The position numbers and the translations under genes are program-made. From Candidatus Thermosaccharophagus tengchongensis (lineage in GTDB: Bacteria > Armatimonadota > Fervidibacteria > Fervidibacterales > Thermosaccharophagaceae), in the NCBI GenBank assembly GCA_032161105.1, contig JAVHTD010000004.1: a DNA stretch of 64,000 nt; one strand, 5' to 3'. This document shows, one piece after another, positions 35,760 to 59,851 of the stretch (position 1 is the first letter of the stretch; every line of letters starts with the position of its first letter). The notes beneath the pieces are model-generated. The model had not been told where the DNA came from. It was given only the letters and a program-made list of their open reading frames with translations, and did not search any database.

Positions 35760-36009
35760 CTCGCTTCACCTCCATGCGCTGCGGGCTGCGAAAACCTTCG
35801 CGAGTAAAGCGATTGCACTCGTGCTAAAATGATACCGACATTGGAGGCGGACTTTTCAAGGGGCGAAATTCAACGCATGAAAACGGGCTATGGTGAGGTG
35901 TGAGATGCCTCCTCAAGGGGCGGTTAGCTTGGTGCATGGTTGAATTGGGTATGGCTTGCGATGCCTGCCTGAACAATACATTGCGTTCACGAATTCGGGG
36001 CGCGATGCT

Positions 36010-37533
36010 ATGAGTGGGCATGAAGCGAGAGTGAAGTTGCGCCGTGAGGTCAGTGTGTGGGGCTCGTTCTGTTGGGGCTATGCTGATGTTGGTGCGGATG
36101 TGTATGTTGCGCTCGGCTTAGTTATGGCTGCAGCTCAGGGCGCAACTCCGCTTGCCTTTGCCATTGCCGGCTCGGTTTATGTCTTCGTTGGGTTGGCATA
36201 TACGGAGATGGCATCGGCATACCCAGTGGCTGGTGGTGGGCAATATTTTGCGCTGCGCGGTTTGGGCGAAATCTGGAGCTTGCTATGTGGTGCAGGATTG
36301 CTGTTGGATTACACAGTTGATGTGGCACTATTTACGACTGCTTCTGCAGGTTACATCAACTTCTTCTTTCCGGCGGCGAGGGAGTTTGCGATAGACATAG
36401 GTCCGTTCAAAGGTGTCAACTTAATCTGGCTCACCGAGACATTGCTCCTAATCTTGCTGCTCGCCGTGCTCAATGTTAAGGGCATAAGGGAATCATCGCT
36501 GTTCAACGAGACGCTCGGCGCACTTGACCTTGTCCTTGAGACAACGATCATAGTCATAGGGTTTGCGTTTGCATGGCGCCCGGAATACTTCTTGCACCAG
36601 TGGAGGACGCAGTTCCCAACGGCTGAGAACTTGGCTTACGCAACAACCATTGCCGTCATCTCCTATGTCGGTTTGGAATCAATATCGCAAGCTGCTCAAG
36701 AGACAATACGCCCAACGACGGTCGTCCCGAGGAGTTCACTCGCTCTTGTCGTAATCGTGCTCCTATTTGCGCTCACCTTCCCGATTGTGTCACTCGGTAT
36801 CGTTGATTGGCGAACGATTGCGGAGCGAGAAGGTGATCCAATAGCTCACCTTGCAAGCCACCTCCCATTTGTCGGCTTCCTCGCCGGACCGGCAGCTGCG
36901 ATTCTGGGTGCGACGATATTGCTCATTTCGGCAAACACAGGAGTCATGGGCGCATCAAGGCTGGCGTATAGCATGTCCGAGACAAACCTAATAGGGGCGT
37001 GGCTATCGCATGTGCATCCGAAGTTTCGGACACCGGTGAGAACGATAGTCGTCTTTTCAGGTATTGCTGCATTGCAAGCCCTGTGGGCATTCCTGAGCGG
37101 GAGAAGGGCACTGGACATATTGGTTGATGCTTACGCATTCGGCGCTATGCTGGCTTACTTCGTCAGCTGCTTGGCGCTGATTGCTCTCAGGATAAAAGAG
37201 CCGCACACGCCGAGGGCTTTCAAAGCTCCCTTGAACATACGCTGGCGCGGTGCTGAGATACCGCTCATCGGTGTGTGCGGTGCAATCGGCACATTCATTA
37301 TGCTCATCGTCATCCTGTGGACGCATCACGCAGCCAGAATATTGGGACCAATTTGGGTGGCAGCTTGGTTTACGGTATACGCCTGCCATAGGAAGAGAAA
37401 TGGGCTCCCGATATTCCGCAGCACTGAGCAAGATTGGGACAGCAAGCAGCTTGAGATACTTTCAGATGCGGGTGAATGGGAGCTTTACGAGAAGCTGCGA
37501 ATAGAGCTTGAGCGGCGCTCAAGGAGGAGTTGA
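36010..37533 (+). CDS. APC-family permease (possible K+ or amino acid transporter)
   Basis: GYADVGADVY.ALG, YTEMASAYPVAGG, YVGLESISQ, SRLAYSM, HPKFRTP; about 12 TM segments. Confidence 0.88.
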   Translation: MSGHEARVKLRREVSVWGSFCWGYADVGADVYVALGLVMAAAQGATPLAFAIAGSVYVFVGLAYTEMASAYPVAGGGQYFALRGLGEIWSLLCGAGLLLDYTVDVALFTTASAGYINFFFPAAREFAIDIGPFKGVNLIWLTETLLLILLLAVLNVKGIRESSLFNETLGALDLVLETTIIVIGFAFAWRPEYFLHQWRTQFPTAENLAYATTIAVISYVGLESISQAAQETIRPTTVVPRSSLALVVIVLLFALTFPIVSLGIVDWRTIAEREGDPIAHLASHLPFVGFLAGPAAAILGATILLISANTGVMGASRLAYSMSETNLIGAWLSHVHPKFRTPVRTIVVFSGIAALQALWAFLSGRRALDILVDAYAFGAMLAYFVSCLALIALRIKEPHTPRAFKAPLNIRWRGAEIPLIGVCGAIGTFIMLIVILWTHHAARILGPIWVAAWFTVYACHRKRNGLPIFRSTEQDWDSKQLEILSDAGEWELYEKLRIELERRSRRS

Positions 37534-37548
37534 GGGGTAAATCGCATT

Positions 37549-37749
37549 GTGGGTGAAGTTAATGTGACGGCGCTGCGAAAAATGATTTGCGTGGCATTGA
37601 TGGCTGTGGGAATGGCTGTAGCCATAAGAGGCTCGCTGCATTGCCTTTCCCACGGTCTCCCATGGGATTGCATAACCATGAGCGCAATAAGCGGCGGTTT
37701 GATCTTCACACTCGGGTTGCTCAAATTGCGTTGCATAAGCGGCAGGTGA
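37549..37749 (+). CDS. Small two-TM membrane protein
   Basis: GAGGGG RBS; two hydrophobic helices; fills the gap between the permease and the USP gene. Confidence 0.45.
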   Translation: MGEVNVTALRKMICVALMAVGMAVAIRGSLHCLSHGLPWDCITMSAISGGLIFTLGLLKLRCISGR

Positions 37750-37755
37750 ACGGCT

Positions 37756-38349
37756 GTGCACCTTGGAGATCCCAACAGCGTTGTGACTCCGGCTGCTTCA
37801 CATCCCCTTGGTGTGTTGCTCGCAATCTCGTTTATCATCGTCCTTGCCGGATTGCTATTTTGGATGCTTCGTTTGCCACAACCAATGCCGCAAGAGGTGG
37901 CAAGGGCGGTCTACTCGGTTGAAGCTATACGAAACATCGTTGTGCCAATACTTGACCCATATTACAGTGAGAGGGCAGTTGAGCTTGCGTGTCGGTTGGG
38001 TAAACTGCACAACGCCAAGCTCGTGCTTGTATACATAATTGAAGTGCCGAGGTTGCTCACGCTTGACTCACCGCTGCCAAGCCATGTTGAGGAGGGAGCA
38101 AAGGAGGCGCTCAATAATGCGGCGCGCATAGCAGAGAGGCACTCAATAAAGGCTGTCACTGATACCATCCGCGCAAGGGAAGCAAATGAGGGCATAAGGA
38201 AGGCTGTGCAAGCATATCATGGTGACATGGTTGTGCTCGGGATACAGCTGGCGAAGGATAGACCACCGACATTGTTCACGCGCACAGTTGAAGCTTTGCT
38301 TCGCCAACCGCCGTGTGAGGTTATCATTGATAGCGTCCCGGCTGCATGA
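37756..38349 (+). CDS. Universal stress protein with N-terminal TM helix
   Basis: NIVVPI..SERAVELACRL..LVYIIEVP..DMVVLG..LLRQPPCEVII. Confidence 0.85.
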   Translation: MHLGDPNSVVTPAASHPLGVLLAISFIIVLAGLLFWMLRLPQPMPQEVARAVYSVEAIRNIVVPILDPYYSERAVELACRLGKLHNAKLVLVYIIEVPRLLTLDSPLPSHVEEGAKEALNNAARIAERHSIKAVTDTIRAREANEGIRKAVQAYHGDMVVLGIQLAKDRPPTLFTRTVEALLRQPPCEVIIDSVPAA

Positions 38350-38362
38350 GGGGTGATCTTGC

Positions 38363-39541
38363 ATGCGAGCCATAATACTCGGCTGCGGTAGGGTTGGCTC
38401 AACGCTCGCCTTAATGCTTGCTTCCGAAGGGCACGAAGTGTGCGTCGTTGACAAAGACCCGGATGCATTCAAGAGGCTCGGTGAAAACTTCAAAGGGCGC
38501 ACGCTTGTCGGATGGGGAATTGACGAAGATGTGCTAAGGGACGCAGGGATTGTGGGTGCAGAGGCATTCTTTGCCGTCACGAACGGCGACAATACGAACA
38601 TCATGGCGTCACAGATTGCGAAAGTGCGCTTTGGTGTCCAAAAGGTGTTTGCGAGGATTTATGACCCGTTGCGCGCCGAGGTATACCGTGAGCTCGGCAT
38701 TGAGACAATCTGCATGACAACACTCGGTGCGGGGATGCTATTTGATCGGCTGCATGACAAGCCATTCAGGAGTGTTGAGGAGTATCTCAAACTGACCCAT
38801 GAGATGCGCAGGTTATACGCTGCCGACCTGCCAACACCAGACCAAGTTGAAACACACCGATCAAGCTCGCGCGGACAAAAGCCAAGCTACATCATAATCG
38901 CCGGTGGCGGCAAGGTTGGATACTCGCTTACTAAGGCACTCCTGAGCGAGGGCTATGAAGTTTTACTCGTTGAGAAACGCCACCAGCGCTATCAGCTCCT
39001 CCATGACGAACTCGGTGATGCGGTCTACTATGGCGATGCATGTGAGATAAGGACAATGGTGCGCATAGGCATGGAGAGGGCTGATTTGGTTGTGGCTGTC
39101 ACTGGCGACGATGAGGACAACCTCGTAATATGCCAAGTGGCTAAGAATTGGTTTGGCGTCCCGAGGGTCATTGCAAGGGTGAACACGCCACGCAATGAAC
39201 AGACATTCAAGATGCTCGGCATTGATGAGACGATAAGCGCAACGACTGTGCTCTTCCAAATGATTGAGCAAGAGGTGGCGGTGGCAGACCTTGTCCCACT
39301 TGCCCTAATAAGGCAAGGTGGACTTGAGATAGTAGAGGTGAACTTGCCGGCGAACTCACCGATCATAGGAAAGGCAGTGAGGGAGCTGAATTTGCCAGCT
39401 GGCTGCTTGCTTGTGGCATTCATACGGGATTCGCAGGCTCAGGTTGTGACCGGCGATACGATATTCCAACCGGGTGACATAATTATAGCCCTTTCACCGC
39501 CGGACGCAGTTTACAACCTGAGGAACTCGCTACTCACATAA
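38363..39541 (+). CDS. TrkA/KtrA-family RCK protein with two Rossmann RCK_N domains and one RCK_C
   Basis: IILGCGRVG..VTNGDNTN and IIAGGGKVG..VTGDDEDN, then NSPIIGKAVRELNLP. Confidence 0.88.
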   Translation: MRAIILGCGRVGSTLALMLASEGHEVCVVDKDPDAFKRLGENFKGRTLVGWGIDEDVLRDAGIVGAEAFFAVTNGDNTNIMASQIAKVRFGVQKVFARIYDPLRAEVYRELGIETICMTTLGAGMLFDRLHDKPFRSVEEYLKLTHEMRRLYAADLPTPDQVETHRSSSRGQKPSYIIIAGGGKVGYSLTKALLSEGYEVLLVEKRHQRYQLLHDELGDAVYYGDACEIRTMVRIGMERADLVVAVTGDDEDNLVICQVAKNWFGVPRVIARVNTPRNEQTFKMLGIDETISATTVLFQMIEQEVAVADLVPLALIRQGGLEIVEVNLPANSPIIGKAVRELNLPAGCLLVAFIRDSQAQVVTGDTIFQPGDIIIALSPPDAVYNLRNSLLT

Positions 39542-39542
39542 G

Positions 39543-40424
39543 GTGAGAGATGTGCCAATGCGACGCCAACCCGGATGGCTAATTGGCGCCCTGCCAGTTT
39601 GCGTCTCATTTGCAGCTTTGCTATTCGCACAGTTTCATGGCGATGTTGGGATTGCATCAGCGCCCGCAAAGGCTGAAAAAGCGATCACTGCCTTCGTTCC
39701 GTGCGGAATGAGCTTGCCATTTTATGCGTTCAAGAGGGAATTTGAGGGGCAGACAAAATGCACTGTCAACCTCGTGTTTGACAACACCGTAGTTCTGCTC
39801 AGGCGCATACGAAAGGGAGAAAGACCCGATGTGCTCATCACACCCGGCGAACTTGAAATGCGCCAAATGATAAATGAGGGCTACATTGATGGAAGCACGG
39901 TGCGCACATTTGGGACATTTGACCTTGTCCTTGTCGTCCCGAGGGGCAACAGGGCGAATGTGAAGACAGTCTATGATTTGGCAAAGCCATCGGTTAAAAC
40001 CATAGGCATCGCTGATTGGGAGCTTAATTCAGCCGGCTACTACGCTAAGATTGCGCTTGAGAGAGCGGGGCTTTGGGAGAAGGTCAAAGGAAAGCTTGTC
40101 AAGCACTGGCATGCCCTGAAAGCAGCTGAGTTCGTTTGCAACGGCAGAGTGGATGTCGGCATTTACTACGCGACATGCCCATTTGAGAGCGGTCCAGAAA
40201 AGCTTGAAGAGGTTGGCGTGCAAGTTCAGCGCCGCCCATACCAAATCGTCGCACGAGTGCCAATTGACCTATACCCGCCTGTGAAGGTGCAAGCTGGAGT
40301 CCTTAAGAAGGCGCCGAACAGAAAGATGGCGTTAAGATTTATCTCACTGCTCCTTGACAGAAAGGTTCAGAAGCTGCTCGCAGAAAAGGGCATACCAAAC
40401 TATCACGCTTCTGGTAAGCGTTAA
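39543..40424 (+). CDS. ModA-like extracytoplasmic solute-binding protein (Cys variant)
   Basis: Signal peptide; AFVPCGM, PDVLI, LVLVVP.GN, IGIAD..SAGYYA..AL, VDVGIYYATC. Confidence 0.75.
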   Translation: MRDVPMRRQPGWLIGALPVCVSFAALLFAQFHGDVGIASAPAKAEKAITAFVPCGMSLPFYAFKREFEGQTKCTVNLVFDNTVVLLRRIRKGERPDVLITPGELEMRQMINEGYIDGSTVRTFGTFDLVLVVPRGNRANVKTVYDLAKPSVKTIGIADWELNSAGYYAKIALERAGLWEKVKGKLVKHWHALKAAEFVCNGRVDVGIYYATCPFESGPEKLEEVGVQVQRRPYQIVARVPIDLYPPVKVQAGVLKKAPNRKMALRFISLLLDRKVQKLLAEKGIPNYHASGKR

Positions 40425-40549
40425 GCATCCCGGCTCTTGCGGGCTGTTTCAAAAAGACATGTCTATAAGCTCATAGTTAAGCCTTCGCTGGCATATGAGC
40501 GCTCAATTAGGGCGGGAAATGCTTAACTAAGTTCACGAAACAAGGAGGT

Positions 40550-41812
40550 GTGCTGGTGATGCGCCAATCGGCGACGAGGATGCGTGCCATATCGGTAATT
40601 GCGAGCTATGTGGCAATGAGCATCGCAGTGCTGCTCTGCATTTGCATGGCTGCATCGGAGCAAAAGTGGAAGTCCGAGTTCGGCAACCCAAAGGCTAAGG
40701 TGAAGCTTGAAGCGCTTTATCCAATTGGATGGGGTGGGCACGAGTGGGTGATTGAGTATGTGAAGGAAATTGTCGGCTCGTTTCCGGGAAAGGTGTATGC
40801 TGTCATCATTGATTGGTCAACTGAACAAGGCACAAAGGAACTTGAAAAGCGCAAGCTGTCGTGCGGCGCATTCTTGATCAACGGCAAACGAATTGTGAAG
40901 GTTGATGGTGAGCAAGTTGAGTTTGTTAAGTCACCGCTTTTGGGTGGCTGGACGAAGGAACAGCTCAAAAGGGCAGTAGCTGCGGAGGTGCGTAAGGCAT
41001 ACGGGGAGGGTGAGACGAAAGCAAAGGTGGAAGAGGCTAAGAAAACGCTGGGTAAGCAAATTGTGTTGACCGCGTTTGTGCCATGCGGTGTTGCAGGTCC
41101 TTATGTGGACATAAAGCGCATGTTTGAAAAGCACAACCCAAATGTCAAGCTGAAGGACCAAATTGAGAATGTGCTTGTGCTCGCAAAGCGCATTGAAGCC
41201 GGCGAATCGCCGGACATCTACATCACTGTCGGAAGGAGTGAAGTCAGTGAGCTGATAAAAAAGCGCGGCATTAAGCCAAGCGACATAATTACGGTCGCAA
41301 AGACACGCATAGCACTCATAGTGCCTGAGGGAAACCCAAAGAGGCTAAAGTCAGTAAACGACCTTACATTGGGGGATGTGCGCACAATCGGGCTTGCGAG
41401 GGAGGAGACATCGCTCGGTCGCTGTTCACGACAGGCGTTAGAGAACTTGGGCATCTGGGAAAAGGTGAAGGGCAAGGTGGTGTATGCCAAGTTCCCGGCG
41501 GAACTCAAAGGTCGGGTGCAACAGCGCCGCGTGGATGCAGCCATAGTTTACTACCCATGCCTTTTTGAGGCGTATGAAATCGGGCAACGCCCGAAGTTCG
41601 CCGAGAAGGTGGCACTCGTATCTGTCATCCCGTCAAAGCTGCACGATGAGATACCAGTGCTTGTCATCATCATGCCCACATCCGCCAACGCGGAAGCCGC
41701 AAGGAAGTTTGCTCAGTTCATGCTCACTGATGAGGGGCAAAGGGCTTTTGAAGAATGGAAGTTTGAACCAGTCAAACCAATCACGACCGGGAAAGGCATA
41801 CAGCGCAAATAG
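40550..41812 (+). CDS. Fusion of a thioredoxin/DsbA-like domain lacking CxxC with a ModA-like binding domain (Cys variant)
   Basis: Signal peptide; GNPKAKVKL..LINGK..WTKEQL (Trx-like); then AFVPCGV, PDIYI, LIVPEGNP, SLGRCS, VDAAIVYYPC, ARKFAQFM. Confidence 0.7.
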   Translation: MLVMRQSATRMRAISVIASYVAMSIAVLLCICMAASEQKWKSEFGNPKAKVKLEALYPIGWGGHEWVIEYVKEIVGSFPGKVYAVIIDWSTEQGTKELEKRKLSCGAFLINGKRIVKVDGEQVEFVKSPLLGGWTKEQLKRAVAAEVRKAYGEGETKAKVEEAKKTLGKQIVLTAFVPCGVAGPYVDIKRMFEKHNPNVKLKDQIENVLVLAKRIEAGESPDIYITVGRSEVSELIKKRGIKPSDIITVAKTRIALIVPEGNPKRLKSVNDLTLGDVRTIGLAREETSLGRCSRQALENLGIWEKVKGKVVYAKFPAELKGRVQQRRVDAAIVYYPCLFEAYEIGQRPKFAEKVALVSVIPSKLHDEIPVLVIIMPTSANAEAARKFAQFMLTDEGQRAFEEWKFEPVKPITTGKGIQRK

Positions 41813-41948
41813 CATTTGAGAGATTGCAAACGCTGCGTCACTTCGGACAAACCAGAGGCGCACCGAGCCACAAAAACTGTGTAATGTAAACCTTACGCCA
41901 AACCACAACCTCAACGAGCAAACTCATGCCTCAAGCGGGGTGTAGCAA

Positions 41949-43154
41949 ATGCATATAACCTTGGGACAGGTCATTGATGTCTTCAAGTGTTGCATATTCA
42001 CATGGGACTTTCTCCCGGTTGTGCTTCCGGCATTCTTGCTCGCTGGCGCAATATCGGCATTTGTCCCGACAAGGCAAATACTCAGTTACCTTGGATATCG
42101 CGCCAACCCGATGAAGGCATACCTTGCAGCTTCACTTGGCGGCTTCGCCCTTTCAACATGCTCGTGCAACATTGTCCCAATAGCGCTCAGCACCTATAGG
42201 CGCGGTGCTGGAATAGGTCCCGCATTCACCTTCCTGTTTTGTGGTCCGGCTATTAACCTTGTGACATTGGCATGGGCTTTCAAAGTCATCGGGTTCAAGA
42301 TGGGGCTTTGGAGGGCGCTCTCAGTCCCGCTAATCGGAATAGCTATGGGAGTGGTGATGTATCTCCTCTTCAGGCGTGAGGAATTGGAGCGGCAAAGGAC
42401 TGCCAAGGATGACCCGCAAGAGATTGCATCATTGGCTGGTCAAGGTGGCGAAGTCCAGATGAAGCACGCAATGAGCGTCATCATTCTGCTACTTGGCATC
42501 ATGCTGCTTGGTGCTGCCGGCCTCCCATGGGCATTTCGCATACCAGTGCTCCTTGTCTTCGCAATCGCGCTCATCATGGTGCTTGAAAGATGGTTCACAG
42601 TTGAGCACATAAAGCTTTGGATAAGCGAGACATGGCTCTTCATGAGGAGCATACTGCCGGTCATAGTTCCGGCTATACTCGCAGTGGCATTTATTGCGCG
42701 CCTTATACCGATACGGTGGATAACCGAATACCTCTCCGAGAACACGGCTGCAGCTACATATATGGCTGCCGCATTTGGCTCACTGATGTATTTCCCAATC
42801 CTGACTGAGGTGGCTTTCGTAAAAGCTTTCCTGAAGCAGGGTATGGCAGTTGCGCCGGCGTTGGCAATACTTCTCAACGGACCCGGTGTTAGCCTTCCCG
42901 GGGCGATACTCATTGGCAAATTCTTCGGTTGGAAGAAAGCAGTCGTATACGAGTTGCTTGAAATGTTCCTTGGCGGGAGCGTCGGATTCCTCTTCGGCAA
43001 GATACACGGTGACTATGTTTGCCCATGCCAAGTGGGGGGTGTATCACCGCCAAATGTCTGGCTTATCATAGCTATGCTCGTGATGGTGTTTGTAGCGCTC
43101 GTCTCATCGTTCATCCTGCTCCTCAGAAAAAGCGAGAGGGTGTCATGGAGTTAA
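41949..43154 (+). CDS. DUF318/ArsP-family permease
   Basis: PAFLLAGAI, LSTCSCNIVP, GAGIGPAFTFL..GPAIN, GSLMYF..LTEV, GM..APALAILL.GPGVSLP. Confidence 0.85.
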   Translation: MHITLGQVIDVFKCCIFTWDFLPVVLPAFLLAGAISAFVPTRQILSYLGYRANPMKAYLAASLGGFALSTCSCNIVPIALSTYRRGAGIGPAFTFLFCGPAINLVTLAWAFKVIGFKMGLWRALSVPLIGIAMGVVMYLLFRREELERQRTAKDDPQEIASLAGQGGEVQMKHAMSVIILLLGIMLLGAAGLPWAFRIPVLLVFAIALIMVLERWFTVEHIKLWISETWLFMRSILPVIVPAILAVAFIARLIPIRWITEYLSENTAAATYMAAAFGSLMYFPILTEVAFVKAFLKQGMAVAPALAILLNGPGVSLPGAILIGKFFGWKKAVVYELLEMFLGGSVGFLFGKIHGDYVCPCQVGGVSPPNVWLIIAMLVMVFVALVSSFILLLRKSERVSWS

Positions 43155-43270: not shown

Positions 43271-43999
43271 TTGCGCATGCTGATAGTCATAAGTTTGGTG
43301 GTTACTTTGATGCTCTCCGGCACAATCATGTATGAAATTCTTGCCCACGAACCTTTTCCGAAGGTCGTTGCGTTGACTTTTGACGACGGACCGCACCCCG
43401 TTTACACGCCAAAAATTCTGGACATCCTGCAAAGGTATAATGTCAAAGCGACTTTCTTTTTGATTGGCAAGCAAGTGGAACAGTTCCCAGAAATTGCCCG
43501 GCAAATTGTTTCTGAGGGGCATGAAATTGGCAACCACACCTACTCGCACCCCAATAACTTGCCGAAAGAAAACTGGGATGAGGTCAGGTCTGAGATTGAA
43601 AAATGCTCCACCGCCATAGAGCGTGTCACAGGAATTCGCCCGAAGTTTTTCCGGCCGCCAAGAGGGTTCTTGAACTACAGGGTGCTTACACTCGCGCAGT
43701 TGGAAGGCTACACCACTGTCCTCTGGACGGTCAGCGCCGACCACAAAGATGCTCCTACACCGCAAGCAATGGCGAAGCGTGTGCTGAAACTCGTTCACCC
43801 TTGCGCCATTATCTTGATGCATGACGGTCGCGTCTCTTCCCGCTGGAAAGATGTAAAGGCGCTGCCGCTAATCATTGAAGGCTTGCGAAAGCAAGGCTAC
43901 GAGTTCGTCACTATCTCTGGGCTGTTTCAAACTTTTCGGAAAGCGAGAAATTTGGCTCCCCACAACCCCCTTGCCCTTAACGGCGGAATGCGGAGGTGA
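43271..43999 (+). CDS. Polysaccharide/peptidoglycan deacetylase (NodB homology, CE4)
   Basis: ALTFDDGP, HEIGNHTYSH, FFRPPRG, IILMHD; N-terminal TM segment. Confidence 0.92.
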   Translation: MRMLIVISLVVTLMLSGTIMYEILAHEPFPKVVALTFDDGPHPVYTPKILDILQRYNVKATFFLIGKQVEQFPEIARQIVSEGHEIGNHTYSHPNNLPKENWDEVRSEIEKCSTAIERVTGIRPKFFRPPRGFLNYRVLTLAQLEGYTTVLWTVSADHKDAPTPQAMAKRVLKLVHPCAIILMHDGRVSSRWKDVKALPLIIEGLRKQGYEFVTISGLFQTFRKARNLAPHNPLALNGGMRR

Positions 44000-44096: not shown

Positions 44097-44375
44097 TCAA
44101 AGGTGTCCCTCAACCAACTTCTCTGCCGACTTCGCCATTAGCTCCGCTCTTAAGAGCAAATCCTCACGCCTGTCATCCCCTATGACCTTGTAGTCTTCAA
44201 CCACAAGCCTGCATGCCACTAACGCCTCATAAGCCCTCTCAAGCGCTTCTTGCAACGGTTGTGGAAGGAATACCGCTGTGACGATGTGAGCCATTCTTCT
44301 GATGCGCCTTTGCAATGATGCCCGATGACGCTTATCTCCGTGAAATCCCTTGACCTCGTCCACGAGCGCCCGCAC
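44097..44375 (-). CDS. Small helical hypothetical protein (about 92 aa)
   Basis: GTG 44375 directly after the DGC gene stop; MRALVDEVKGFHGDKRH...KLVEGHL. The longer track ORF overlaps the DGC gene and its N-terminal part is probably spurious. Confidence 0.5.
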   Translation of the reverse strand: MRALVDEVKGFHGDKRHRASLQRRIRRMAHIVTAVFLPQPLQEALERAYEALVACRLVVEDYKVIGDDRREDLLLRAELMAKSAEKLVEGHL

Positions 44376-44379
44376 TTGC

Positions 44380-44952
44380 TTAACCGCCTTCAGCGCCGCC
44401 CTCTGCTCTTTGCTTAGATGTAACTTTGGCAACCCTGCGCACCTCCGAAAGGAGCAACCTGTCAACTTCCTCAACGATCCTCTCGGCGAGCAGCTTGGAT
44501 GCCCTCTGACCGAGCTCTCCGAGGATGTAATTGCTCTCCACACCGAGGTCAATTCCGGACTCACGCAAGAACTCATCGGCGTAAATGACAGCGTTGGGCT
44601 CCTTGCCATATCGGCGGCACATCCTCGTGCCACACGCATATGAGCACGCCTCAATCGCAATGACCGGATACGAGAGCACATAGATGATGTCCTCCTCGGC
44701 GCCAACGAACAGCGCAGGCGCACACCCAAGCACCGTCACCTTCGGGCGCAATTCCTCAGCAACGATATAACAAGCCTGCCTGACAGCAGTCCCAATCGCA
44801 TCCTCCAAACCCAAACATGGCATGAGACAAACCTTCACCCCTCTATCGGCAATCGCCCTTATCAAGCAAGGGCAAGTGCGCCGCTTAACTTGACCACTCT
44901 TTCCGACCGTGTTGCCTGCATCCCTAACCCGCATCTGTCTCACTTCCCGCAA
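44380..44952 (-). CDS. DGC-domain-like putative zinc-binding protein
   Basis: LMPCLG..GTAVRQA..LGCAPAL..IAIEACSYACG pattern; paralogous to the upstream gene. Confidence 0.7.
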   Translation of the reverse strand: MREVRQMRVRDAGNTVGKSGQVKRRTCPCLIRAIADRGVKVCLMPCLGLEDAIGTAVRQACYIVAEELRPKVTVLGCAPALFVGAEEDIIYVLSYPVIAIEACSYACGTRMCRRYGKEPNAVIYADEFLRESGIDLGVESNYILGELGQRASKLLAERIVEEVDRLLLSEVRRVAKVTSKQRAEGGAEGG

Positions 44953-45404
44953 GTGGCAATAAACTCGTCAACGAGCTTGACTACCTCACTTGCAATTGCC
45001 TCAACGACTTTCATTCCCTTTTCGGAATAACGACTCCTCTGCTCACCCTTCAGCGACAAGCCATACTTGACGCATACTTCGGGGATGTAAATTCGCCCAA
45101 TGACCTTCCCTCCGATGTCACTCGGCTTGATGATGCCATCCTTAACCTTTTCGCTATACACGCCGCTTGCGCATTTTGGCTTGCACCCATCAATCAGGAT
45201 GAGCGGATATGAGTTTGCATCCCTCACAGCCTTCGGGTAGTCAACGCCGAGTGTAGCAGCTCCCCACACGATAATGTTTTGTGGGCGAAGTTGCTGTGCA
45301 CGCAATGCGCCAAGCCGGGCTGCCGTTGAAACGAGCATGCCAATGCCATTGCACGAAACCACGACAACCTTAAGGTTTGAACTTGGTTGCATCACCGCTT
45401 TCAC
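44940..45404 (-). CDS. DGC-domain putative zinc-binding protein
   Basis: VVSCNG..STAARLGA..ILIDGCKPKCAS. Confidence 0.75.
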   Translation of the reverse strand: MKAVMQPSSNLKVVVVSCNGIGMLVSTAARLGALRAQQLRPQNIIVWGAATLGVDYPKAVRDANSYPLILIDGCKPKCASGVYSEKVKDGIIKPSDIGGKVIGRIYIPEVCVKYGLSLKGEQRSRYSEKGMKVVEAIASEVVKLVDEFIATCGK

Positions 45405-57054: not shown

Positions 57055-58779
57055 TTATACCTTGAACAGTTCCCCAAGCCGTCTTCCGAGTGTTCTTGAG
57101 GCAATGGAAAGGCTTAAGGCGAGTATTGCCATTCCGATGACACCCATTGCGGATGCGATCCTCGGTCCGTCACCAACTCGCCTGCTGAGCACATAGATGG
57201 CTTTTGTCATCGGGAAGTTTGGCGGGTTGAGAGCGAGTATCAGGCTATCGCTCACCTCAAGCATCGCAAATGCAAATGTGAGTATTGCTCCCGCAGTTAT
57301 GTGCGCATAGATGAGTGGCAATGTCACTTTAATAGTCGTCCTCAGGGGCGATGCGCCGAGGCTCATTGAAGCTTCCTCAAGCGTTGTGCTGACCTGTTGA
57401 AAGCCGGCATAGCAAGCTCTGACCAAGTATGGCATCCTGCGAACTGCGTAGCTTATGATGAGCAGAGGCGCCGCATTAACCCTCGGGTCAAGGATGGTAT
57501 TGGCGTAGCACCCAACATAGCCAAACGCGAGCACCACACCCGGTATCGCCAACGGCATCATGGCAACGATGTCAAGCAACCCCTTAAACGGCACTCGCCT
57601 CCGCGTGAGGATGTAGGCGATGGCGACACCGAACACAACATCCAATGCTGTGCTCACGAGCGAGTAGATGAAACTATTTCGTATGCTCACAGTTGTGATT
57701 GGGTGTTTGACGATGGCTTCGTAATGCTGCAATGTGAATTCGCTTGGCAGCGCGCTCATAGCCCATGACTTGGCGAACGAATTCAAAACGACACACGCAT
57801 GCGGCACCATTGCAATGAGGCACAGAGCCAATATAAATAAGGTGACGAACCACCCCTTCATGCCGATAAGCTGCTTTGGTGAAACGGCGCTCGTTGACAC
57901 AACCGCAACTTGCCTCCTTTCCGATAAGCGCTTTGATAGCGCAAACAGCACCGATGTGATCGCGAGCACAAGCACTATGAGCGCATATCCGGATGGGTCC
58001 TCGGTGGCAGTCTCAACCATGTTGAAGATGCGCACCGGTATAACTTGCGTGTATAGGAATATGAGCGGAGTGCCCAAATCGGTGAATGAGAAGATGAATG
58101 TTAAGATGCAAGCTGCAAAGACGCCGGGGAACATGAGCGGGAGAGTAACGGTTAGAAATCTCCTCATCGGGCTGGCACCGAGCGATTGCGCGGCTTCCTC
58201 AAGCGTCCTATCCACAGAGGAGAGCGCAGCGGCGAGATTTAGGTAAGCGATTGGGTAAAGGTGCAGCGCCTGCACGATGACGACGCACCAAAAGCCCATC
58301 TCAAGCCAATCAATTGGATGAGCGCGGTCCATCAAACCGAGGCTCATTAGCAGGCTGTTGAGGGCGCCATAGCGCGCAAGCAATTGCTTCATCCCGATCG
58401 CACCAACAAATGGCGGCAGTATGAGTGGCATGAGCAACAAGATGCCAAGAGCGCCTTGCAGCGGGAACTTGTATCTGATCATCGCCCATGCGAGCGGCAT
58501 GCTCACTGCCATCGTTAAAGCCGTTGAGGCTGTGGCGAGCTTGAAGCTGTTTAGTATGCATGTGAGCACAGCCGGGTTGCGAAAGAGCAACATGAAAAAA
58601 TCAATGGTGAATTCGCCATCGGAGAAGAATGCCTCACGGAGGCTATATAGCATCGGGTAAATGAGGAAAGCCGCAAGGAATGCGGCAAGCGCAACAACTG
58701 CAAGCACCACATCCGGCTTCAGGTCGTAATCGTGGATGAGCCTGCTCGCAAAATTACTCAGGCGGTATGAGGATGACAT
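57055..58779 (-). CDS. ABC transporter permease, Fe3+/thiamine (FbpB) type with two TM domains
   Basis: Two EAA loops (LEEAAQSLGAS, LEEASMSLGAS), LPPFVGA, DLGTP. Start uncertain. Confidence 0.88.
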   Translation of the reverse strand: MSSSYRLSNFASRLIHDYDLKPDVVLAVVALAAFLAAFLIYPMLYSLREAFFSDGEFTIDFFMLLFRNPAVLTCILNSFKLATASTALTMAVSMPLAWAMIRYKFPLQGALGILLLMPLILPPFVGAIGMKQLLARYGALNSLLMSLGLMDRAHPIDWLEMGFWCVVIVQALHLYPIAYLNLAAALSSVDRTLEEAAQSLGASPMRRFLTVTLPLMFPGVFAACILTFIFSFTDLGTPLIFLYTQVIPVRIFNMVETATEDPSGYALIVLVLAITSVLFALSKRLSERRQVAVVSTSAVSPKQLIGMKGWFVTLFILALCLIAMVPHACVVLNSFAKSWAMSALPSEFTLQHYEAIVKHPITTVSIRNSFIYSLVSTALDVVFGVAIAYILTRRRVPFKGLLDIVAMMPLAIPGVVLAFGYVGCYANTILDPRVNAAPLLIISYAVRRMPYLVRACYAGFQQVSTTLEEASMSLGASPLRTTIKVTLPLIYAHITAGAILTFAFAMLEVSDSLILALNPPNFPMTKAIYVLSRRVGDGPRIASAMGVIGMAILALSLSIASRTLGRRLGELFKV

Positions 58780-59851
58780 CGCTCGAGCTGAACCTGAGGA
58801 TGACCTCATCCCCAATGAGCACCCTCTCCTTCGGATTTGTATGGGTCGCCCTCAAATGCCACTTGCCATGACCGCGCTCCACTGAAAGCTCAAGGAGTTC
58901 CTCATCACCCATGTATACGACATCAACCACTTTCGCACGCACTTCGTTTATGGCTTGCGAATCAGCGCTCGCATTGCGAGCCGATACAACTTGCATAGCT
59001 TCCGGTCTTATAGCGATGGTGGCTCTCATGCCCTCACTCAAACCGGGTGCATCATCACAGCAGCATTCAACGATGCAAAATGGCGTTGATAGGAGCGCCA
59101 CACCGCCTTCAACCCTTCTGACAACTCCCTCAATCACATTCGCGTCGCCAATAAACTCGGCAACATATCTGCTCTTTGGCTTGCGATATAGCTCATGCGG
59201 CGTCCCAACCTGCACAACCCTGCCCGAGCGCATCACCGCAATTCTGTCAGCCATAGCCAAAGCTTCCTTTTGGTCATGCGTGACATAAATCGTCGTTATG
59301 CGCGTTTGCGAATGTATGCGCTTAAGTTCCTGCCTCATCTCCTTGCGCAATTGCACATCCAGATTGCTCAGCGGCTCGTCAAGCAGCAACACATCCGGCT
59401 GAACTGCCAACGCTCTCGCCAGCGCAATACGCTGCTGTTGTCCACCGCTTAACTGCCCGGGGTAACGCCACTTTGTATCGCCCATCCTTACAAGCTCAAG
59501 ATAGCTTTCAACCCTCTCGGCAATCTCGCGCTTGCTCAGCCCCCTCAACCTCAACCCATAGGCTACATTCTCAAATACGGTCATGTGCGGGAACAGCGCG
59601 TAATTCTGAAAGACCATCACTGCGTTTCGCCTGTGTGCCGGAATGCGGTTCATCAACCTGTCGCCAAACCATATCTCGCCCTCATCTGGATCAATGAAGC
59701 CAGCAATCAACCTGAGCAGGGTCGTCTTACCGCATCCTGACGGACCGAGCACGAAAAAGAGCTCACCAGGGGCAACCGTTACGCTAACGCCGTCAACTGC
59801 CACAATATCGCCATACCTCTTTGTCACATTGACCAGCCTGACTTCAACCAC
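58754..59851 (-). CDS. ABC transporter ATP-binding protein (FbpC/PotA type)
   Basis: GPSGCGKT, FQNYALFPHM, LSGGQQQR, LLDEPLSNLD, YVTHDQ; TOBE-like C-terminus. Confidence 0.93.
   Translation of the reverse strand: MVEVRLVNVTKRYGDIVAVDGVSVTVAPGELFFVLGPSGCGKTTLLRLIAGFIDPDEGEIWFGDRLMNRIPAHRRNAVMVFQNYALFPHMTVFENVAYGLRLRGLSKREIAERVESYLELVRMGDTKWRYPGQLSGGQQQRIALARALAVQPDVLLLDEPLSNLDVQLRKEMRQELKRIHSQTRITTIYVTHDQKEALAMADRIAVMRSGRVVQVGTPHELYRKPKSRYVAEFIGDANVIEGVVRRVEGGVALLSTPFCIVECCCDDAPGLSEGMRATIAIRPEAMQVVSARNASADSQAINEVRAKVVDVVYMGDEELLELSVERGHGKWHLRATHTNPKERVLIGDEVILRFSSSDVILIPPE

Follow-up and report, generated by a model that had tools for sequence, protein, structure and literature searches.

Binding-protein-dependent secondary transporters are known from the TRAP, TTT and TAXI groups. 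Another design was described for SAO, in which at least two Cys-bearing binding proteins, an ArsP-family permease with a CSC motif, a thioredoxin-like protein and an ABC module are encoded in one operon, for a substrate reported as unknown (Haft and Gwadz, bioRxiv 10.1101/2022.07.06.499078). Here we analyzed a window of 64,000 nucleotides from Candidatus Thermosaccharophagus tengchongensis (Armatimonadota; assembly GCA_032161105.1, contig JAVHTD010000004.1), in which two Cys-bearing ModA-fold binding proteins, B1 and B2, are followed by an ArsP_1/DUF318 permease. The binders fall into a ModA-fold clade of their own, in which Cys stands at the positions of Ala11 and Asp173 of Escherichia coli ModA, and the permease is a separate ArsP_1 subfamily. 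Together they are apparently a phylum-wide, undescribed system; no description of the cassette was found in the literature searched, and most subscription journals lie outside that search. The core likely forms a thiol-based uptake system, possibly for thiosulfate. A binder that feeds a non-ABC permease, as in TRAP, TTT and TAXI, is suggested here by genomic linkage.

Although alike in design and built from ModA-type parts, the cassette is not a member of SAO, because its proteins do not reach the SAO family scores and no selenocysteine (Sec) was found at their conserved Cys positions. The binders have the ModA fold and gave no SaoB or SaoX match at an E-value of 0.01, and the permease scored 81 bits against SaoE (cut-off 325) and 58 bits against SO_0444, both far below cut-off. 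Neither SaoL, SaoC nor SaoD was among the scanned neighbors, with no genome-wide search made. Here a ModB-like protein serves as the ABC permease and is dispensable; SaoE, by contrast, is reported never to occur without ABC parts. ModABC and WtpABC share with the cassette the fold (Z up to 26.9), Tyr170, and the ModB-like permease and WtpC-like ATPase of its relatives, but here Ser12 and Ser39 are lost, Cys stands at 11 and 173, the binders form a separate clade, and they are tied to an ArsP-type permease and present in genomes without molybdenum cofactor (Moco) genes. The ArsP and SO_0444 exporters belong to the same Pfam family (PF03773) and have the CSC motif; the permease here differs in its additional invariant N-terminal CC and C-terminal CxC, in scoring below both NCBIfam cut-offs, and in its linkage, which is to binding proteins instead of Acr3.

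The three open reading frames (ORFs) and all motifs reported by a first-pass annotation of this DNA were found in place on the plus strand (Table 1). B1 and B2 matched PF13531 (135 and 119 bits) and TIGR01256 modA (81 and 67 bits, cut-off 62.5), and are the only ModA-like matches in the source genome; the binders of this system pass the ModA cut-off and go under the name of molybdate-binding proteins in databases. The AlphaFold2 model of B1 (mean predicted local distance difference test, pLDDT, 95.4) matched ModA best by Foldseek (E about 1e-22), and its top structural match was 7tav (Z 26.9, root-mean-square deviation 2.7, 224 aligned). Both binders have the AFVPCG motif (C54 in B1, C179 in B2). 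For the second motif, YYATCP in B1 (C212) and YYPC in B2 (C337) were present as annotated, but the variable spacing Y-Y-x(1-2)-C was not upheld: in the ModA alignment both read Y-x-x-C, and the Cys takes the place of the conserved Asp in Y-x-S/T-D. The first Cys aligns to E. coli ModA Ala11, which is the engineered A11C site of PDB 3AXF, and the second to Asp173.

Both Cys residues were invariant in 25/25 close homologues. Among 267 distinct domains, drawn from the loci fetched and from the 150 top-ranking cluster representatives after dropping domains gapped at the Cys columns, both Cys were found in 172, only the second in 23, only the first in 2 and neither in 70. The Cys pair is therefore not a chance feature. 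The two-Cys domains had Gly at position 12 in 154/172 cases and retained Tyr170 in 134/172, and Ser was outside the four commonest residues at position 39, so that Ser39 is largely lost and the clade lacks the full anion-ligand set of ModA (Ser12, Ser39 and Tyr170). In a FastTree phylogeny of 236 domains dereplicated at 75%, 171 formed one clade apart from canonical ModA with a local support of 0.98, and 148 of these had both Cys. This clade divides into B1, B2 and a further group, B4, with B1 and B2 as two subclades. The conservation expected by the first-pass annotation was thus borne out, and by alignment to solved ModA structures the two positions map to the pocket rim. In Pseudomonas aeruginosa ModA, the equivalent of Ala11 (Ala32) touches the anion, and Asn33 and Ser188 form an inter-lobe hydrogen bond (PMC9171197). 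By a constant offset we infer that these last two correspond to positions 12 and 172, and Cys11 and Cys173 therefore probably face each other at the rim of the pocket.

Cys residues in or near the cleft have been described for AioX, for Acinetobacter baumannii ModA and for the A11C/R153C ModA of 3AXF. The last has its Cys at the same first position, with residue 153 and not 173 as the partner. AioX differs as a sensor with one Cys, and the A. baumannii disulfide lies at other positions, within one lobe.

The permease matched PF03773 ArsP_1 with 175 bits. Its motifs were confirmed as C14-C15, C71-S-C73 and C358-P-C360, and a PF03773 domain with a CSC motif places it in ArsP/DUF318. The N-terminal CC, the CSC, a MYFPxLxE motif and the C-terminal CxC were invariant in 36/36 members of the subfamily, and score and coverage set the subfamily apart from generic DUF318 proteins. 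In one locus (L033:11908-13665, minus strand) the permease is fused in frame, via a TGA at the UxxC position, to an exported redoxin domain; this fusion is a probable selenoprotein and would place the N-terminal CC of the permease outside the membrane.

As annotated, a thioredoxin-like domain without CxxC is fused to the second binder. Its model (pLDDT 90.6) has the thioredoxin fold, and the Foldseek matches listed for it were nearly all of that fold, but weak (best E 0.004, TM about 0.5-0.6). Instead of the oxidoreductase CxxC there is a single Cys elsewhere, Cys105, invariant in 24/24 homologues, and the Pro and His are near-invariant. The same type of domain was found free-standing or fused to B1 in other loci. 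An ESM Atlas search with it returned unnamed clusters only. Two more proteins of the source genome carry such a domain (C1:239514-240089 and C6:65212-66177), one of them in two copies.

The linkage of VPCG-type binders to DUF318, for which the first-pass annotation had suggested a survey, turned out to be tight. With thresholds set at score gaps (E <= 1e-65 for the binders, E <= 1e-110 for the permease subfamily), 401 Armatimonadota genomes divided into 67 with binders, 62 with the permease, 60 with both and 332 with neither, so that binder and permease occur together in 60/62 permease genomes and 60/67 binder genomes. Four of the seven binder-only genomes have partial or split permease matches and the other three are 61-84% complete; one of the two permease-only genomes has a binder fragment. 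The carriers span about 20 families, in which related genomes are not independent. Of 79 permease loci in metagenomes, 49 remained after dereplication and 36 had enough flank, and a Cys binder lay within 3.5 kb in 31 of these 36. A GTDB-wide scan with a pattern built from the close alignment gave 31 loci, a few labeled outside Armatimonadota. Among named homologues, the closest, at 74-76% identity, bear the titles Ca. Thermosaccharophagus or Armatimonadota; at 50-58% identity the titles are mostly those of Fervidibacter and its relatives. Fervidibacter sacchari has both B1 and the permease. In L138, a record titled Victivallales, a NifS-like gene comes after B1, which may be a case from outside the phylum.

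The locus contains no ModB-type permease or ATPase, in agreement with the first-pass annotation; the ABC genes at 57055-59851 of the window include a 586-aa two-domain permease of a different type from ModB. A ModB orthologue was not found in 4/4 genomes of the genus (best TIGR02141 scores 94-104 bits, cut-off 182.6), and a profile of the ModB-like permease subfamily also had no match in 4/4. The source genus, whose genome analyzed here is 97% complete, keeps only the core, without the ABC module. Across the 67 carriers, the ModB-like permease was full-length in 44, partial in 10 and not found in 11, and in 2 incomplete genomes it was represented only by another paralogue; it also occurred in 8 non-carriers, and within 6 kb in 7/18 long metagenome loci. 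One common full operon reads ArsP, B1, thioredoxin-like, B2, B3, permease, B4, ATPase. In the sister family B2 is fused to the third ModA domain, B3, which lacks Cys173, and the ModB-like permease often follows. The annotated role of the permease as a substitute for an ABC transporter therefore holds for the source genus (0/4) and not for the wider group, in which 44/67 carriers have a ModB-like permease, often in the same operon. Because of these carriers and the many operons that include a ModB-like permease and an ATPase, homologues do in part sit with modBC-type genes, a neighborhood that the annotation had counted against its proposal. By this distribution, what stays constant is the partnership with the ArsP-type permease, and the ABC module is frequent yet dispensable. 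The B4 paralogue, encoded between the ModB-like permease and the ATPase, has CPPC near 38-41 together with Cys residues at about 153 and 173 (seen in L080, L082, L088, L093, L095, L096, L099 and L105).

For 77 loci, a number of them from related organisms, we counted the neighbors of the core up to a distance of 5 kb. Genes of sulfur type were NifS/IscS (12), ThiF (7), lipoyl domain (6), NifU-like (4), MoaD/ThiS (3), TauE-like (3) and Thi4 (2), the TauE and NifU labels being presumed from sequence. MTH895/ArsE-type thioredoxins were found in 11 loci and CxxC thioredoxins in 8. The core does not lie in an ars cluster: ArsC was found in 0/77 loci, ArsD in 1 and MIP in 1, and Acr3 is located elsewhere, ArsR not having been searched. 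Signs of sulfur trafficking are commoner among the neighbors than signs of arsenic handling. The linked NifS was one of two copies in 5/5 genomes tested, and the lower-scoring copy in 4. We further compared 40 carriers with 40 non-carriers that we picked from the 401 genomes, 18 of the non-carriers coming from carrier families. Homologues of DGC2, a DGC-domain protein encoded downstream in the window, were present in 22/40 carriers and 0/40 non-carriers; DGC2 lies within the operon in one locus (L070), and is a probable accessory component of the system.

From the observed fold, motifs, linkage and independence from Moco genes, we infer how a ligand might be handled. B1, B2, the thioredoxin-like domain and the Cys-rich permease would form a core that captures a thiol-reactive sulfur oxyanion, for example thiosulfate, outside the membrane; a relay of cysteines would then carry the anion or its sulfur inward. 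The anion cradle of ModA (helix N-termini and Tyr170) would still hold a tetrahedral anion, the change of Ser12 to Gly and the loss of Ser39 would give space for a bulkier sulfur atom, and Cys11 next to the anion and Cys173 on the opposite lobe may bind or attack the ligand. The single-Cys thioredoxin domain and then the CC, CxC and CSC motifs of the permease could receive it; inside, a dedicated NifS/IscS paralogue and ThiS/ThiF-type carriers would use the sulfur. Most relatives add to this core the ABC module of B3, ModB-like permease, B4 and ATPase. The working analogy is YeeE/TsuA, a non-ABC membrane protein moving a sulfur oxyanion past conserved Cys; YeeE transports thiosulfate past three of them (PMC7449682). 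It belongs to a different family and is not known to work with a dedicated binding protein. That thiol-dependent binding proteins work with the ArsP-type permease, whatever the ligand, seems to us moderately probable. A thiol-relay importer of a thiosulfate-type ligand, which leans on the YeeE analogy, is put forward tentatively. We are a little more reserved about a new class of binding-protein-dependent non-ABC transporter, in which Cys-armed ModA-fold proteins would take up a sulfur oxyanion or metalloid by covalent binding and transfer it, via the single-Cys thioredoxin domain, to an ArsP-family permease whose six invariant Cys would relay it through the membrane.

Several observations weigh against thiosulfate import. 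The ArsP-family members with data are reported to be exporters (Haft and Gwadz, bioRxiv 10.1101/2022.07.06.499078). The B1 model resembles ModA (Z 24-27) more than it does sulfate-binding proteins (Z 21.6-23.1), and exported Cys pairs are common among the paralogues and may be plain disulfides. NifS is beside only 12/77 loci, several of them from related organisms, and is not beside the copy in the window. The PAPS-reductase family is only slightly rarer in carriers (15/40 vs 22/40), and YeeE/YedE-family genes are present in 4/5 carriers, the source genome included, so that these genomes may have a route for thiosulfate already. In the loci of the DGC module, a MIP channel was present in at least 11/15 and an ArsC-like gene, scoring below cut-off, in 2/15.

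It is possible, though doubtful, that the ligand of the Cys pair is As(III), Sb(III), a thioarsenic species or a soft metal, which the permease then exports or detoxifies. The permease does belong to the ArsP family, with weak matches to SaoE and SO_0444, the DGC module has its MIP channels, ArsC-like genes and MerR-thioredoxin regulators, and MTH895/ArsE-type thioredoxins are near the core; in addition, the fusion locus L033 holds ArsD and CcdA, Acr3 was not found in 7/7 genomes of the source order tested, and AioX binds As(III) via Cys108 (PMC7533571). However, the generic DUF318 subfamily lies within about 4-11 kb of Acr3 in five genomes (G075, G167, G175, G214 and G221), whereas no listed Acr3 is near the cassette when compared by eye, and the scarcity of ArsC (0/77) and ArsD (1/77) points the same way. 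Acr3 was found in 18/40 carriers and 26/40 non-carriers, without clear association, and several binders, an import-type ABC module and family-wide inheritance would suit nutrition over resistance. The As, Se, Hg or Cu ligand of the first-pass annotation is thus not supported as it was stated, given that no Sec variant was found, SelA is unassociated and the neighbors are more of sulfur than of arsenic type. Less probable still, the Cys pair could form a disulfide, structural or acting as a redox switch, by which the lobes are stapled together, with an ordinary oxyanion fed to the ABC permease and the ArsP-type protein and thioredoxin domain keeping the redox state. Cys173 is nearly always partnered, by Cys11 in the 172 domains and, in most of the other 23, by Cys at 151-153 or a CxxC near 38-41, which fits such a disulfide, as do the CxxC thioredoxins, which are periplasmic, beside 8/77 loci and the one permease fused to a predicted UxxC redoxin. 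Engineered cross-lobe disulfides alter ModA selectivity (3AXF; PMC11350598), and A. baumannii ModA has a natural redox disulfide, located at other positions, with a tuning effect (PMC11734730). On the other hand, the 11/67 genomes without a ModB-like permease, all 4 of the source genus among them, leave the binders there without an ABC partner, and both Ser ligands were lost along with the gain of the Cys.

A variant molybdate or tungstate uptake system would agree with the TIGR01256 scores of B1 and B2, with the linked permease passing TIGR01581 (214.5 vs 210.3) and with the linked ATPase matching WtpC best, below cut-off. The source genome has MoaC and a molybdopterin formate-dehydrogenase-like gene and no other ModA-like gene, so that the binders may have a role in molybdenum supply there, and AOR is enriched in carriers (9/40 vs 2/40), though not required. 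But MoeA showed no clear association (24/40 carriers vs 21/40 non-carriers), not being found in 16 of the carriers, canonical ModA genes coexist with the cassette in L033 and L086, and in five carriers that are 95-98% complete and have the full system with its ABC module, MoeA, MoaC and nitrogenase were not found. The system is not confined to genomes with molybdenum or tungsten cofactor synthesis; since the core is kept in carriers without Moco genes, molybdate uptake is unlikely as the general role, and we consider this variant quite improbable. Selenite reacts with thiol pairs, and selenite or selenium uptake, with the NifS paralogue as a selenocysteine lyase, could be imagined from that reactivity, the one permease with a predicted Sec redoxin and the tRNA-Sec of the source genome. 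SelA is not associated with the cassette (23/40 vs 19/40) and was not found in the source genome, and the Sec variants that the first-pass annotation proposed to look for did not appear: no TGA was seen at a conserved Cys in 264 binder, 93 ArsP, 100 thioredoxin-like and 32 ModB-like matches (redundant loci included), the one internal TGA lying away from any Cys position, in a second copy that is broken. This makes selenium the least probable of the ligands considered. As MoeA, like SelA, was not found in the source genome, tRNA-Sec without SelA and MoaC without MoeA reflect either assembly gaps or decaying traits.

The proposed thiol-based uptake system bears on how several families are named and understood. 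Its binders are called molybdate-binding in databases and yet occur in genomes without Moco genes. If they feed the ArsP-type permease, the DUF318 family would acquire a partner and a role in import, and a new membrane family would be added to binding-protein-dependent transport; were the new-class proposal true, the source genus, lacking the ABC module, would represent its minimal form in nature. DGC-domain proteins gain a testable context, and the three-gene version here is small enough for expression as a whole.

Table 1 Features of the cassette and its downstream DGC pair in the window.
Feature	Position	Strand	Length	Remarks
B1, ModA-fold binding protein	39543..40424	+	293 aa	hydrophobic N-terminal leader; Cys54 and Cys212
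B2, binding protein	40550..41812	+	420 aa	leader, thioredoxin-fold domain, second Cys-pair ModA-fold domain (Cys179, Cys337)
Thioredoxin-fold domain inside B2	about 40655-41020	+		conserved Pro and His; invariant Cys105
ArsP_1/DUF318 permease, distinct subfamily	41949..43154	+	401 aa	PF03773
DGC1, DGC-domain protein	44380..44952	-		tandem partner of DGC2; PF08859, 28.5 bits
DGC2, DGC-domain protein, probable accessory component	44940..45404	-		PF08859, 30.9 bits

A promoter and terminator scan of the locus gave background level only, and an expression check yielded 32 reads across 12.5 kb in 1/3 runs, too few to use. Between the core and the DGC pair stands a polysaccharide deacetylase (43271-43999, plus strand). 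A 210-codon ORF without a family match (44097-44729, minus strand) overlaps DGC1, and its 5' part may be spurious. DGC1 adjoins DGC2 in most of 15 fetched loci, which also carry MerR- or helix-turn-helix (HTH)-thioredoxin regulators and DUF2180. In the conserved module seen in L141-L154, a MerR- or HTH-thioredoxin regulator, the two DGC proteins, a MIP channel and DUF2180 are accompanied by an exported protein that bears an S/T-G-L-N-N-I-P-T motif and matched no Pfam family.

Elsewhere in the source genome, a fusion of an ArsC-like LMW-PTP domain with an ABC ATPase is encoded next to phosphate-type permease genes (C22:17434-18594, minus strand), and a TupA candidate was rejected, the single PF12849 match reading as PstS. 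In one carrier, the contig with the cassette also has a sulfate/thiosulfate-binding protein gene, some 7 kb past it (G235:C139:42881-43780). Upstream of B1 in the window are an APC transporter, a small membrane ORF, a Usp-domain protein and a double TrkA-domain protein (35956-39541, plus strand); a gap of two bases separates the stop of the TrkA-like gene from the start of B1, and these upstream genes are arranged alike in three congeners.

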